NCBI RefSeq assembly: GCF_965641715.1
Contig: NZ_OZ282454.1
Strand: one strand, 5' to 3'
Origin: Escherichia coli
GTDB taxonomy: Bacteria > Pseudomonadota > Gammaproteobacteria > Enterobacterales > Enterobacteriaceae
DNA length: 64,000 nt
Position numbers and translations under genes: made by a program. Below the pieces are notes generated by a model that had not been told where the DNA came from, ran no database searches, and worked only from the letters and a program-made list of their open reading frames with translations. This document shows positions 46,685 through 51,982 of this stretch, one piece after another; position 1 is the stretch's first letter; the number at the start of each line of letters is the position of its first letter.

Positions 46685-47542
46685 TCAGGGAGACGCTGTG
46701 GCCAGCCGGCTGTAATTACGGTTACGTGACAGAATCATGCGCTCCTTCACACGACGCTCCACTTCGCGTTTTACCGCCTCACCATTAGCAGTGAAGCGTC
46801 CTTCCGAGATTTCACGCGTCAGCTGCCGTTTCACCAGGGTGACGATATCCTGACGTTCCCTGTTCGCATCACGACGCGCACGGGCACGTTTTATTCCACG
46901 GGACTTAAGCTCTGTCTGGTAACTGCGGAAACGCTCACGCACAAAACGCCAGGCTTTCGCTATCAGCTCATCCATACCCAGGGTATCCAGCCCCTGCTTT
47001 TTGCGCTGTTTGTTTTCCCATTCAACACGACTGCGGCGCGCAGCTGCCACTGCATCCTCAGACACATCAAGGGCAGCAAACAGAGCCAGTGTGAACGTGA
47101 TGTCGGTCGGAATGTAGCACCCGATAAGCGGGTCATATTCCGTCTGGTAGGTAATCAACCCCAGCTCTGACAGGAACGTCAGGGCACGGGTGGCACGGGT
47201 GATGGAGAGTTTTCCGGCAGCAGACTCCGTCGCCAGTCCGCACTCAATGGCCAGCGTGGTGATGGAGCACTGGACGCGGTTGGCCAGCGGGTCATAGTGG
47301 AAACACAGCCCCTGCAGGAGCGCATCAATAGCCCGTCGACGCAGCACTGGTGGCATGCGTCGACGCAGACCACGCGAACGGGCATGCGCCACATGAATGG
47401 CGAAATCAAAACGGGAAGTGAAGCCCACCACCTTTTCCATCAGTTTTTCGCAGAACTTCAGCGTTCCTGCACCTTCACGGGGTGTAAACACCGGATTCGG
47501 GTTCTTTACCTGGCGGTAATACGTTTGGTGAAGATCAGTCAC
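46685..47542 (-). CDS. repA1: RepFIIA replication initiator RepA1 (285 aa, GTG start)
   Basis: Translation (V)[36 protein letters not shown]... matches IncFII RepA1 as recalled. Confidence 0.9.
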
Positions 47543-47589
47543 ACCATCCTGCACTTACAATGCGCAGAAGGAGCGAGCACAGAAAGAAG

Positions 47590-47690
47590 TCTTGAACTTT
47601 TCCGGGCATATAACTATACTCCCCGCATAGCTGAATTGTTGGCTATACGGTTTAAGTGGGCCCCGGTAATCTTTTCGTACTCGCCAAAGT
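47590..47690 (+). ncRNA. copA: Probable CopA antisense RNA / CopT target region of RepFIIA copy control
   Basis: Position between copB and repA1 on the opposite strand to repA1; stem-loop-capable sequence. Boundaries approximate. Confidence 0.3.
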
Positions 47691-47846
47691 TGAAGAAGAT
47701 TATCGGGGTTTTTGCTTTTCTGGCTCCTGTAAATCCACATCAGAACCAGTTCCTTGCCACCTTACGGCGTGGCCAGCCACAAAATTCCTTAAACGATCAG
47801 TAATCTAGCACTAATCTTCTGAACACTCAAGAATGTAAGCCCATCA

Positions 47847-48101
47847 TCACATGCATCGTTTTTGCGCTTCACTTTTTATCAGTGCGGTCAGAACTTCAGC
47901 CTGAGTCAGGCCATCTTCATGACACATTTGCATGAGCATGGCCTTATACTTTGGTTCAAGAAATACTTTTACTTCCTTGAACGAAGCTCTTTTACGGGCC
48001 ACTGATAATCTTTGTTTCTCTGCATCAGAAAGCGGATTCCCCTTTCTGTATGCTCGTTTTGCGCCAGATGAGGAAGTCACTGCATTTTCTGTCTGCGACA
48101 T
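47847..48101 (-). CDS. copB: RepFIIA copy-number repressor CopB/RepA2 (84 aa)
   Basis: Small basic protein (MSQTENAVTSSSGAKRAYRKGNPLSDAEKQRLSVARKRASFKEVK...) upstream of repA1. Confidence 0.85.
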   Translation of the reverse strand: MSQTENAVTSSSGAKRAYRKGNPLSDAEKQRLSVARKRASFKEVKVFLEPKYKAMLMQMCHEDGLTQAEVLTALIKSEAQKRCM

Positions 48102-48340: not shown

Positions 48341-48982
48341 TCAGCTACGATGTTCAGGTGGCTGCTGATCAGCCCCTGTTGTATTCAGCCATTCGCCGGT
48401 CATCTGCAGCAGTTTTCTGGCATCGTGGCTTCTGAGCAACGGTATACCAGCCTGCCTCATAACCTCTTCCAGAAGAATATCCCGGCGTCTGCGTTCCGGT
48501 CGTAAATGGCTGGCATCATCCAGCTCTACTGCTGCAACAATACTGAACGAACGCCGCTCAACGATAACCACATCAACATGCCACTGGGACACCATCCTGA
48601 ATAACTGCCACCACTGACGTGATCGTGGCCGGATATTCCCGTTCAGCTGGACGATATCAGCGACCCGTACCTGCGGGCACAGATACCACCGCTTCATATC
48701 CACAATCCTGAACAACCCTTTCATGAAACTGACCTCTCTTTCTGTCAGCAACGTTTTCTGACGCTGCCAGTATTCACCGCTGACCAGTATTCGCTCAGCT
48801 TCACCGGGGCGTATGCCTGCTGCATGTAACCGTATCAGTGCGGGAGGACAGTTTTTACTCCTCCGGAATATTATCCGGACAGACAAAACAGCTATAATAA
48901 TAACGACTACAATGAAAATAATTAAATTCATTATTATGTCCTTAATTACATATGAGTCCAGGTGAACGAATGTAGTTTTCAC
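48341..48982 (-). CDS. Membrane-anchored DUF2726 (NERD-like nuclease-related) domain protein (213 aa)
   Basis: N-terminal TM helix; C-terminal region with the acidic/His pattern HVDVVIVERRSF...VELDDASHLRPERRRRDILLEEVMRQAGIPLLR reminiscent of DUF2726. Confidence 0.45.
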   Translation of the reverse strand: MKTTFVHLDSYVIKDIIMNLIIFIVVVIIIAVLSVRIIFRRSKNCPPALIRLHAAGIRPGEAERILVSGEYWQRQKTLLTEREVSFMKGLFRIVDMKRWYLCPQVRVADIVQLNGNIRPRSRQWWQLFRMVSQWHVDVVIVERRSFSIVAAVELDDASHLRPERRRRDILLEEVMRQAGIPLLRSHDARKLLQMTGEWLNTTGADQQPPEHRS

Positions 48983-49082
48983 CCGAAGTAAGACTCGAAA
49001 TATTTATCCCATGAATTACCTGAACGTTATCAGAAATACGACAAACCAGATCCGCAACAGATAATTCTGTTGTGATAAGGGG

Positions 49083-49709
49083 TCACCGCCTCGTTAACCA
49101 GACAATTTTATCAGCCTGGATTTTAATTACCCCACGACGAACCAACTCACTACGTATACTAACAGCCCGTTCTTTATGCCATTCTCCTCGCATATGCGAT
49201 TTTAAATAATTATTAAACCCCTCCACTGACACCGGTAAATTCCGCACATCACTTCCGGATGCCTGCTGCATTCTGTTAGCCCACCGGATAATAACATCCC
49301 CCTCAGGGACAATCAGGTGAGATACCGGCAAATGACTCTCAGCGTGCTCTGGCGCAATACGTTCGCAACGAAAACCCCGTTTTTGCAGAGTATGAATTAT
49401 TCCATCATAGCCTTTATCGTTTGAAATAATATGCCAGGTGTTGTTTCCGGCACTGCAGCACGTCATCCTGCCGAGCTCCATAACAAGGTGAAAGTCAACA
49501 TTATTCTTCGAAATGTTATCTATCTGTCTGATACTCACTCTGATATTATCTGGCCAGGTATCAGCAGGTAAGACCACTGTTTGCTGAAGAGGACCAGCAA
49601 ATAAAATCAAATCGGTATAATCAGCAATCGATATATTTCTCAGATTGCAACAGTTTTCATAATCAATGAGCGCAATGCGTAATACTTCATTTCTCATCAT
49701 GTTTTCCAT
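49083..49709 (-). CDS. Hypothetical protein with NYN/PIN-like N-terminus (start uncertain; ORF open to 49745)
   Basis: N-terminal LRIALIDYENC resembles the start of NYN/PIN-fold nucleases; no firm family call. Confidence 0.35.
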   Translation of the reverse strand: MENMMRNEVLRIALIDYENCCNLRNISIADYTDLILFAGPLQQTVVLPADTWPDNIRVSIRQIDNISKNNVDFHLVMELGRMTCCSAGNNTWHIISNDKGYDGIIHTLQKRGFRCERIAPEHAESHLPVSHLIVPEGDVIIRWANRMQQASGSDVRNLPVSVEGFNNYLKSHMRGEWHKERAVSIRSELVRRGVIKIQADKIVWLTRR

Positions 49710-50458
49710 TATATATTCACCATAATAAAACAGAATAAACTGCAAACCCGACGCAGTGTATCTACCGGTCTGGTTAAGTTTTCATTATCGGGATATAAAA
49801 TATTGTCTGCCGCCAGTCAGGCAGCCCGGAGTTCCGTGAGTGATATCACAAATCAATAAACCACCACTTAATTCATAAACATCCTTGTGTCACTATAAGC
49901 CGGTCGGTTATCCGGTGCGCCATGAGTAATCCGTTCTGAAGAACGGAAATACAGAGTGCCAGGTTGTCTCACATAATACAAAAGCAAATTTCATGCATCA
50001 TTCAGCCTCCTTACCCTGGAGAAACGGAGGCTGTTTTTATATTCCTGAAACACCATCCGCAATGATTCATCGCTGGTGAGTTTTATGAATTTAATCTCAA
50101 ATATGCCAGCCTCTTTATTTATTCCTTCCGTCCATATTTCCGGCATCGTTCTGCGCGTAGCCGGGCAAATCGTCGCCAGTCCGCCCGGGGAGCAATTCCG
50201 GCGGCCTGACACCACGCCTCAGCAGCCTCCATCCAGAATCCACGGATTTCCAGATTAACAGCCCTGTGTCCGGTACGCTGCCAGCGCCAGACCTGGCCGT
50301 TTCGTGAACTGTTTCTGAATCCATTCATTTTCCTGTCCCCCTTTAGTTGTCAGTATTATTGTGATAAATAATTCAGTGGACTAGTTTTCTTTCGGGTACG
50401 GAAGTTATTTCCTTTTAAGCCTTATTTCCCTGCCTCCCCTCTCTGAGGGAGGCTTTTT

Positions 50459-51019
50459 TCATTTCTCATCAAGCACGGCCTGAAGTTCTGCCTTTATCCG
50501 GTTCTGGCGGCGGATTTTATCCAGACGCGCTGCTGCATACGCTTCCTCCTCCTGAGAAATATGCTCCGTCACATACCCTTCCGTGTCATACCGGCAGGCA
50601 CCGGCTTTCATGGCACACAGATAGCTTTCTGAACGGGTGATGGCCTTCAGCGCCCTGCGCAGCTTTTTATGCGAGAGCGGGATATTCCGCTGCGCCACGT
50701 CTTCCAGTAACACGTCCCGGATACCGCAGGCCAGAAGCCGGGGCGTGTCACCGTCAAATAATCCCGGCCACCAGGGTTTCAGGGTGTTCACGGCCTCATC
50801 CAGCGTGGGCAGGTTCAGATAAATGGACAGCGCCTGTCTGGCCTGCGCTTTTTTTGCCGCCAGCTCCGCTTCCCGGGCTGCTTTCTCGGCCAGCTTCTGC
50901 TTTTTCACCTTCCATTTTGGTGGCGTGGTGACATTGATGATGGTTTTCCGGCTGCGGACAGGCGTCTCTCCTTCCGTTTTCCGCTTCAGTGTCAGTACCG
51001 GTCGTTTTTGCTCTGCCAT
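50459..51019 (-). CDS. finO: Fertility inhibition protein FinO (186 aa)
   Basis: [64 protein letters not shown] matches F-like FinO. Confidence 0.9.
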
Positions 51020-51121
51020 GCTTACTCTGACCTTCGTGAAAATATGCCCTGCAGGCCGTTGAAACAACTCATCGTAACAGGAAGTTAATTTCAACGACCT
51101 TTAACGTATAAATACTGACAA

Positions 51122-51982
51122 TTAAAGATATTGTTTAAACCATTGTGTCTGCACAGCTACTACACGTTCAAAAAACGCGCCCTCATAAATATCATAATGG
51201 CATGCATCAGCTTCCTCGTATAATTCCTTAGTACCAGAAGCAACAGCATCATATAATGCTCTTCCCTGTTCCGGTGGATTAACGCTATCCTGGCCGGCAA
51301 TAACAACCAAAACTGGGCACTGGACGCTGGCTGCACTCTCTGCCGGTTTATATTGCAACGTTTCCATGACCGTAAGGAAAGGTATTTTTATATCCATTTC
51401 GGGATGCCGGGCTTTGATTTTCTCGAAGAATACCTTCGATTCATCATCACTTAGTACCCGTGTAACCCCCACAAACATCTCTTTCCCGGTGTTTTTCTTC
51501 TTCTCTGCCATTTTATTCAGCGTGGATAGAAAAGACGCTCTCTCCGATTCATTCATCTCTCCGGTAACCAGAACATCACCGTCAGCAAAAGCCAGCTGGC
51601 TGACAATACATTTTACGCGTTGGTCCTGCGCAGCTGCACTGAAGACATGCCCCCCACCCAGCGATGTTCCCCATAACCCAATACGCTGATTATCAATACA
51701 TTCCTGCTTTTCTGCCCAATTGATAACTGAAATAATATCTTCGGTCTGCATTGCAGGAACCAGACGCCCTCGTTCTCCATCACTCTCACCGAATCCTCGA
51801 TAATCAAAAGTAATCGTTGCGAATCCTGCTTCTGTGAAGGCATTCGCAAAGCAAGGGAGCAGAACATTCCTGATACCGCAAAACCCATGGCATAAGATAA
51901 TCAAAGGATGTTTTATATTTACTTCAGGAACACGAAATGTCAGGGCAATACCTTCAGAGAGTTTGTGATCCGTAATTTTCAT
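51122..51982 (-). CDS. Alpha/beta-hydrolase-fold protein (286 aa) between traX and finO, as in R100-type plasmids
   Basis: GxSxG nucleophile motif (LWGTSLGGGH); size and position match the 286-aa ORF found between traX and finO in R100-like plasmids. Confidence 0.7.
   Translation of the reverse strand: MKITDHKLSEGIALTFRVPEVNIKHPLIILCHGFCGIRNVLLPCFANAFTEAGFATITFDYRGFGESDGERGRLVPAMQTEDIISVINWAEKQECIDNQRIGLWGTSLGGGHVFSAAAQDQRVKCIVSQLAFADGDVLVTGEMNESERASFLSTLNKMAEKKKNTGKEMFVGVTRVLSDDESKVFFEKIKARHPEMDIKIPFLTVMETLQYKPAESAASVQCPVLVVIAGQDSVNPPEQGRALYDAVASGTKELYEEADACHYDIYEGAFFERVVAVQTQWFKQYL

Follow-up and report, generated by a model that had tools for sequence, protein, structure and literature searches.

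Two predicted nuclease genes, probably independent accessories, in the variable finO-repA2 interval of an Escherichia coli F-like plasmid

INTRODUCTION

SNIPE is the only experimentally understood protein that is built on the plan of an N-terminal membrane helix followed by a cytoplasmic nuclease. It has a single N-out transmembrane (TM) helix, a cytoplasmic DUF4041 region and a GIY-YIG nuclease (Saxton et al., bioRxiv 10.1101/2025.11.03.685801). Phage DNA is cleaved by SNIPE during injection, and the protein is toxic when the TM segment is missing, the tether preventing self-cleavage (bioRxiv 10.1101/2025.11.03.685801). A survey of the PD-(D/E)xK nucleases puts Vsr, DUF559 and DUF2726 in one group (PMC3424549), and the NYN-OST-HTH proteins have been proposed to act as a stand-alone RNA-degradation system (PMC5499597). 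In this study, we examined two adjacent genes of an Escherichia coli plasmid, one encoding a DUF2726 protein with an N-terminal TM helix (plasmid yihA) and the other a PIN7/NYN protein, which lie between finO and the IncFII replicon in a stretch of 64,000 nucleotides (RefSeq assembly GCF_965641715.1, contig NZ_OZ282454.1), referred to here as the window.

In the region from 46.6 to 52 kb of the window, the distal part of the tra operon of an F-like plasmid meets the RepFIIA replicon. This finO-rep junction is described as a hotspot for inserted DNA that possibly coordinates transfer with copy number (PMC2808357; PMC12864245). A sequence-only reading of the window had proposed that the two genes could form a small defense, exclusion or addiction module. 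Our comparisons indicated that the interval between finO and repA2 is a variable slot, with nuclease and regulator cassettes swapped in and out. We consider it somewhat probable that the two genes are independent single-gene accessory nucleases of this slot, with the roles proposed below, and not a matched two-gene system.

RESULTS

Both genes were present as open reading frames (ORFs) on the minus strand. They lay between the copB/repA2 replication regulator (47847-48101, minus strand, identified from the annotation of near-identical plasmids), which delimits the slot downstream, and finO (50459-51094, minus strand), which delimits it upstream; these are the flanks named in the sequence-only reading. 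The DUF2726 gene extended from 48341 to 48931 (minus strand; 196 amino acids [aa], ATG start) and the PIN7 gene from 49083 to 49709 (minus strand; 208 aa, ATG start), while the mechanical ORFs reached a GTG at 48982 (213 aa) and a TTG at 49745 (220 aa), respectively. These longer ORFs exist as originally described; their GTG and TTG starts were replaced by the internal ATG codons at 48931 and 49709 because of homolog alignments, the RefSeq annotation and an AAGGA Shine-Dalgarno sequence, which precedes the ATG at 48931. The two genes did not overlap, the PIN7-DUF2726 spacing being 100 to 150 bp. The 2.36-kb interval was 100% identical to E. coli plasmids from United Kingdom pig farms, such as pRHB38-C15_2 (IncFIA/FIB, conjugative), and 98.5 to 99.5% identical to plasmids of enterotoxigenic and other E. 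coli strains, including E24377A, 1392/75 and B7A. In near-identical plasmids, the RefSeq labels were "NYN domain-containing protein" (208 aa) and "DUF2726 domain-containing protein" (196 aa).

The DUF2726 ORF matched Pfam family PF10881 well above threshold (E = 3.3e-21; 75.8 bits, cutoff of 24.7), with a weak match to REase_MTES_1575. The N terminus (LIIFIVVVIIIAVLSVRII) was strongly hydrophobic, with a Kyte-Doolittle value of 3.36. The domains comprised a TM helix at residues 2 to 26, a short helical pair at residues 30 to 51 and a Vsr/DUF559-like PD-(D/E)xK endonuclease domain at residues 64 to 188. The helical pair (LHAAGIRPGEAERIL) looks like a helix-hairpin-helix motif in our own reading, and the N-terminal 62 aa matched no Pfam family at E values up to 10. 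A restriction-endonuclease-like alpha/beta core closest to that of Vsr and DUF559 was found, the best structural neighbors being 3hrl (DUF559), 3r3p (the catalytic domain of I-Bth0305I) and 1cw0 (Vsr). An alternative label of NERD was rejected, as the protein did not match the Pfam NERD family.

Conservation of the putative active site was assessed in an alignment of 52 DUF2726 homologs with 23 to 99% identity. Residues E66, V88, R89, D92, H118, D120 and E136 were invariant, L137, D138, D139, H142, R147, R150 and D151 were conserved in at least 90% of the sequences, and every one of these positions was retained in the window protein. The 15 positions following the TM helix contained 203 Lys or Arg residues in these homologs, compared to 10 before the helix, and 50 of the 52 proteins had more of these residues on the C-terminal side. 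Based on the positive-inside rule, the nuclease domain of YihA is predicted to lie in the cytoplasm, anchored to the inner membrane. A whole-library search at E values up to 0.001 detected 4512 representative clusters of DUF2726. A strongly hydrophobic N-terminal segment was present in 63 of the 84 listed representatives of at least 150 aa (homologs and fusion products), and many truncated or fused products were found among the matches. Matches were detected in at least 5000 PLSDB plasmid records, some of which name the gene yihA. The listing of plasmid yihA as a cell division GTPase in PMC4794485 is an annotation error arising from a name collision with chromosomal YihA/EngB. Comparison with the R100-type allele gave a dN/dS ratio of 0.20, indicative of purifying selection; the ratio could not be estimated for deeply diverged pairs because synonymous sites were saturated. 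In PHROGs, just one weak family of unknown function was matched.

The PIN7 ORF matched Pfam family PF18475 (E = 5.8e-17; 62.7 bits, cutoff of 34), while the match to NYN (PF01936) was below threshold (E = 0.003; 18.5 bits, cutoff of 24.2). An NYN/PIN-like domain at about residues 9 to 120, containing the LRIALIDYENC sequence from which the initial assignment was made, was followed by a C-terminal winged helix at about residues 136 to 204. Among 29 homologs with identities down to 29%, G39, S67, N69 to L75, G80, S96, D98, K99, G100, D102, C115, R117 and P159 were invariant, and D16, Y17, E18 and N19 were conserved in at least 90%. Residues N69 to L75 form the NNVDFHL part of an SKNNVDFHL motif, and an SxDKGYD motif was also conserved. 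This alignment indicated that the acidic positions of the NYN site (D16, D72, D98 and D102) are intact. The AF2 model was of moderate confidence (pLDDT of 78.7) and showed a three-layer alpha/beta domain at the N terminus and, at the C terminus, a domain of three helices plus a beta-hairpin. Foldseek matched the model to the NYN domain of MARF1, the best of the annotated structural matches (5yaa and 6fdl; probability of 0.98 to 1.0, TM-score for the target of 0.48 to 0.50) and its C terminus to winged-helix domains. The C-terminal domain matched no Pfam family at E values up to 10, and OST-HTH/LOTUS was not detected. The family was narrow, with 58 clusters in a word-indexed search, mostly from enterobacterial plasmids and, at about 30% identity, Pasteurellaceae chromosomes. 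Scanning a single genome for each species gave 20 loci, and the family also occurred in scattered other genomes.

The nuclease assignments that had been made from the letters of the DNA were thus borne out by the profiles, the structure models and the conservation of catalytic residues, which support a PD-(D/E)xK-type domain in one protein and an NYN/PIN-type domain in the other. The membrane helix and the DUF2726 part of the original description were upheld and the NERD part was dropped. No profile linked either protein to a backbone gene of unrelated function. Both proteins look catalytically intact from their sequences, with motifs held to about 25 to 30% identity, and this conservation, together with the dN/dS ratio of DUF2726, indicated that both genes are real.

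Comparison of F-like plasmids detected a series of different arrangements between finO and repA2. In R100-type plasmids (type A; at least 2098 PLSDB records at a coverage of ≥80%), the slot contained ANR, an SNase thermonuclease, Hha and DUF2726, without PIN7. The arrangement of the window (type B), consisting of an ANR-like gene, PIN7 and DUF2726, was found in 150 records, and 162 records carried the PIN7 allele of the window. DUF2726 was absent from type C (at least 726 PLSDB records), in which a small ORF, PIN7, a 110-aa ORF and hok were present. Type D, from E. coli with a P0002-type allele (L051, 3002-6113), had ANR, a PIN7 gene of 57% identity, DUF2726, a 154-aa ORF and hok, and type E, from IncFII(K) plasmids (L054, 2678-5569), had PIN7 (about 41% identity), a 207-aa ORF, DUF2726, a 102-aa ORF and a PLD nuclease. 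In a Klebsiella michiganensis plasmid (L028), DUF2726 (49%) came directly after PIN7 (42%). Salmonella IncFII plasmids (L043 to L046) had PerC, Hha, DUF465, a DsbA-like gene, DUF2726, an optional PLD nuclease and repA2, with no PIN7. Several of the small ORFs in type D, type E and the Salmonella slot had no Pfam match. These arrangements indicated that DUF2726 and PIN7 are each common without the other, and the two genes did not co-occur wherever either was found. DUF2726 was located directly upstream of copB/repA2 in type A, type B and most Salmonella arrangements; in others, the 154-aa ORF and hok or the 102-aa ORF and PLD nuclease intervened. The gene was directly upstream of repA2 or at most two genes away in every IncFII arrangement examined, and PIN7 stayed near finO.

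Interrupted and fused forms of these genes were also detected. Some type C records had an IS1, IS903B or ISKpn28 insertion sequence (IS) in the PIN gene. IS903B and ISKpn28 were observed inside the PIN-110 aa-hok slot of several Klebsiella plasmids (H106 to H110), and the PIN gene was no longer annotated in the IS1-carrying type C records H108 and H109. An in-frame deletion had produced a chimera of 198 aa, in which PIN7 residues 1 to ∼101 were joined to DUF2726 residues ∼99 to 196, in 18 contigs. The chimera was located between finO and repA2 (L048 to L050; for example, L048, 1858-2454) and lacked two of the PIN7 catalytic Asp residues and the TM helix and E66 of DUF2726. Its existence implies that PIN7 and DUF2726 were once neighbors in this lineage and that a joint loss of the two is possible.

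Outside F-like plasmids, PIN7 homologs were found in the glyQ-glyS interval of Pasteurellaceae (L008, 5653-7882; L011, 4614-8043; L030, 2022-5933), a variable and mixed islet of unrelated genes. Identities to the window protein were 30 to 32% in Glaesserella and Actinobacillus and 40% over the N-terminal half in Canicola. In Glaesserella parasuis, a DUF559 gene directly followed the PIN7 homolog in 8 of the 8 places shown, and in Actinobacillus and Canicola the following gene encoded a YhcG/DUF1016 PD-(D/E)xK nuclease. A conserved thioredoxin-like ORF of 86 to 88 aa and an ORF of 157 to 159 aa were also present in this islet. More distant PIN7 homologs, from Kangiella, Persicirhabdus, Firmicutes, Avibacterium and Treponema, had no restriction-fold neighbor. 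Some chromosomal PIN7 homologs had no FinO nearby, and the copy from Intestinirhabdus (L025) adjoined a FinO-like gene. Distant TM-DUF2726 genes were singletons (L057, 5001-5546; L047, 4001-4507; and a third locus). Their contexts were the edge of a filamentous-prophage-like cluster with Zot and secretin genes, a small plasmid-like contig with TraT and Rep3 and a large contig with mostly unannotated genes.

A third small conserved gene in the interval had been overlooked in the sequence-only reading, which was otherwise correct in placing two adjacent genes between finO and copB. This ANR-like ORF of 69 aa (50119-50328, minus strand) was directly downstream of finO and is annotated as hypothetical in near-identical plasmids. 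It had 56% identity (E = 3e-23) with the PGAP "ANR family transcriptional regulator" (AraC negative regulator) of R100-type plasmids and was kept in types A, B and D. The ORF belongs to the same variable slot and not to the nuclease pair. A match to Rfam AS-pc02, the antisense RNA to pHK01_099, at 49964 to 50219 (plus strand) was below threshold (26.4 bits, gathering score of 40; E = 0.0017) and overlapped the 3' part of this ORF and the noncoding gap upstream of the PIN7 gene.

The remaining features of the region were those of the transfer and replication genes. The traX gene was part of the 46.6- to 52-kb gene run on the minus strand, and a 286-aa alpha/beta hydrolase gene (51122-51982, minus strand) was located between traX and finO; this hydrolase gene accompanied slot types A and B and was lacking in type C and IncFII(K) plasmids. 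The annotated start of finO, which gives a protein of 186 aa, was internal to the mechanical ORF. Downstream of the slot were tap and repA1 (46685-47554, minus strand) and the CopA antisense RNA of the IncFII replicon (47627-47717, plus strand), which was a clear match with 106 bits. A GC-rich hairpin with a 7-bp stem (50432-50453), directly after the finO stop codon, was scored as terminator-like on the plus strand. Nine terminator-like sites were detected in the 2.7-kb region, compared to a mean of 2.1 in shuffled sequences, and none clearly separated the PIN7 and DUF2726 genes. The promoter count in this region was not above shuffled expectation, and a repeat search detected nothing meaningful.

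DISCUSSION

For the favored explanation of two independent accessory nucleases, the following roles are proposed. YihA would be a single-pass inner-membrane protein with its N terminus outside and a Vsr/DUF559/I-Bth0305I-type domain on the cytoplasmic face, and this domain would be an active metal-dependent DNA endonuclease, an activity suggested by its motifs. The most likely role of such an enzyme may be to cut DNA appearing at the inner membrane, such as the incoming DNA of a phage or a rival conjugative element, with the membrane tether keeping the enzyme off the nucleoid of the cell by the same logic as in SNIPE. PIN7 would most likely be a stand-alone endoribonuclease whose winged helix recruits the substrate, as proposed for NYN-OST-HTH proteins, and its gene would be one of several alternative cassettes at this position of the slot. 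Both genes would be dispensable for the plasmid backbone, as suggested by the IS insertions in the PIN gene, the PIN7::DUF2726 chimera and the many truncated or fused DUF2726 products. Expression would probably be low and together with the distal tra/finO region. In the IncFII(K) plasmid pBIC1a, yihA and its neighbors had low expression values similar to those of the tra genes (PMC6286996). A defense or exclusion role is conceivable for either gene alone.

Several observations weigh against this explanation. The order of PIN7 and DUF2726 is kept in at least four diverged F-like arrangements with protein identities of 40 to 57%, and the DUF559 and YhcG restriction-fold genes that follow the Pasteurellaceae homologs may point to a connection in function. 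With its close linkage to copB/repA2, DUF2726 might instead take part in replication or copy number biology. As to defense, neither protein matched a family of PADLOC-DB v2 at E values up to 1, and a search of a phage collection detected a single marginal PIN7 match and no DUF2726 match. Literature searches on DUF2726, yihA, the Pfam accessions and the F-like/finO context retrieved no functional study, and those on the PIN7 family retrieved only papers on an Arabidopsis auxin carrier. The case for defense is one of architectural analogy, and YihA differs from SNIPE in fold and in having no DUF4041.

The kept gene order is the starting point for a reading in which PIN7 and a membrane-bound restriction-fold nuclease act together as a two-nuclease module for defense, exclusion or plasmid competition. 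One protein could, for example, be a sensor or RNA-targeting arm and the other a DNA-cutting effector, with an exchangeable restriction-fold partner (DUF2726, DUF559 or YhcG). Such a module would fit the PIN7-then-DUF2726 order of the window, L051, L028 and, with one extra gene in between, L054, as well as the DUF559 and YhcG/DUF1016 genes following the Pasteurellaceae homologs and the catalytic residues kept in both proteins. We nevertheless regard it as unlikely. At least 2098 plasmids have DUF2726 but no PIN7 and at least 726 have PIN7 but no DUF2726, the synteny in F-like plasmids can be put down to common ancestry, given that finO, traX and repA2 also keep their order, and the glyQ-glyS interval is a variable islet of several unrelated genes. 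Furthermore, distant PIN7 homologs have no restriction-fold neighbor, distant TM-DUF2726 genes are singletons and PADLOC is unmatched. An addiction module, in which one nuclease would be a toxin neutralized by the other protein or by a small antitoxin missing from the annotation and the plasmid would thereby be stabilized, is highly improbable, although the classic VapC toxins are nucleases with a PIN fold (PMC5499597), related plasmids carry hok/sok-type killers in the slot and proximity to the replicon would fit a role in plasmid maintenance. PIN7 is unlike the VapC proteins of about 130 aa, as it has 208 aa, a winged helix and an active site of the NYN type. No small antitoxin-like ORF was coupled to the PIN7 or DUF2726 gene, and the adjacent and usually overlapping antitoxin gene of VapBC systems was lacking, the PIN7 gene being flanked by noncoding DNA of 100 to 150 bp and about 370 bp. 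A toxin-antitoxin assignment was rejected because there was no partner ORF. Either gene is lost or IS interrupted without the other, and the in-frame chimera persists in 18 contigs although neither gene survives intact in it. Neither protein matched an NCBIfam model. Overall, the separate occurrence of the genes, the chimera, the absence of a coupled ORF, the gap of 100 to 150 bp and the lack of a PADLOC or NCBIfam model argue against both an obligate pair and a toxin-antitoxin pair. The interpretation given in the sequence-only reading was partly upheld, in that the nuclease assignments stand and a pairing as an obligate system is unsupported.

Backbone functions would give another meaning to the position of the genes, with YihA acting in IncFII replication, copy number or segregation and PIN7 processing tra, FinP or finO-region RNA. 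The constant proximity of DUF2726 to repA2 in IncFII arrangements, the adjacency of PIN7 to finO or a FinO-like gene (including that of Intestinirhabdus) and the possible coordination of transfer and copy number by the finO-rep region (PMC2808357) are consistent with such functions. They appear doubtful, however, as many functional F-like plasmids have neither gene, a membrane anchor is hard to square with replication control, TM-DUF2726 proteins are widespread beyond IncFII (4512 representative clusters, as well as chromosomal or prophage-adjacent copies) and PIN7 homologs occur on chromosomes with no FinO nearby. A broader proposal is that TM-DUF2726 proteins in general are widespread single-gene, membrane-tethered endonucleases that destroy DNA on its way through the inner membrane, be it injected by a phage or entering by conjugation from a rival plasmid, with PIN7 as an optional RNA-targeting companion. 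This proposal, in which YihA would be a SNIPE-like entry nuclease carried by plasmids, is one that we regard as improbable.

Both proteins are ordinary members of catalogued, uncharacterized Pfam families, and public plasmids already contain annotated copies identical to them. The locus is thus nothing new in kind; the DUF2726 and PIN7 genes are catalogued and intact and are not a new system. The main yield as it stands is the documentation of the finO-repA2 interval as a slot for cassettes that are swapped in and out. The DUF2726 gene is of wider interest for its presence in thousands of clinically important IncF plasmids and in more than 4500 clusters across bacteria. If YihA does attack incoming DNA, plasmids would carry in it a barrier against phages or competitor plasmids, which would matter for phage therapy and for the coexistence of resistance plasmids, and F-like plasmids would have a built-in nuclease-based exclusion or defense function beside the replicon.

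Comparison with known systems places the two proteins in different company. Within the slot, the SNase-type thermonuclease and the PLD-type Nuc/nucC cassettes are like PIN7 in occupying the same position beside DUF2726 in related plasmids. The thermonuclease is probably exported, as its N terminus is hydrophobic and resembles a signal peptide, which PIN7 does not have, and these cassettes are not functional equivalents of PIN7 because the folds are unrelated. PIN7 is like VapBC systems in its PIN-like fold and plasmid location and unlike them in having no antitoxin gene, a larger protein, an NYN-type active site and a gene that is freely lost or interrupted. PIN7 resembles the NYN ribonucleases (MARF1 and the LabA-like NYN-OST-HTH proteins) in its four conserved acidic residues at canonical strand ends and, as in NYN-OST-HTH, in having a small helical nucleic acid-binding domain after the NYN domain; the differences are a C-terminal domain with no Pfam match, in which OST-HTH was undetected, and the narrowness of the family. 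YihA has the E...D...H...D pattern (H118-x-D120, E136-x-D138-D139-x2-H142 and R150-D151) of the Vsr/DUF559/I-Bth0305I ("EDxHD") branch. Unlike Vsr, DUF559 and the homing endonuclease, it has an N-terminal TM anchor, and in contrast to Vsr and the homing endonucleases, there was no cytosine methyltransferase or intron partner in the gene neighborhoods examined. Compared to SNIPE, YihA is much smaller (196 aa), has a PD-(D/E)xK instead of a GIY-YIG nuclease and lacks DUF4041, with Pfam showing DUF2726 only. The plan is nevertheless similar, since YihA, like SNIPE, is encoded by a single gene and is predicted to have one N-terminal TM helix in an N-out/C-in orientation and a cytoplasmic nuclease domain.

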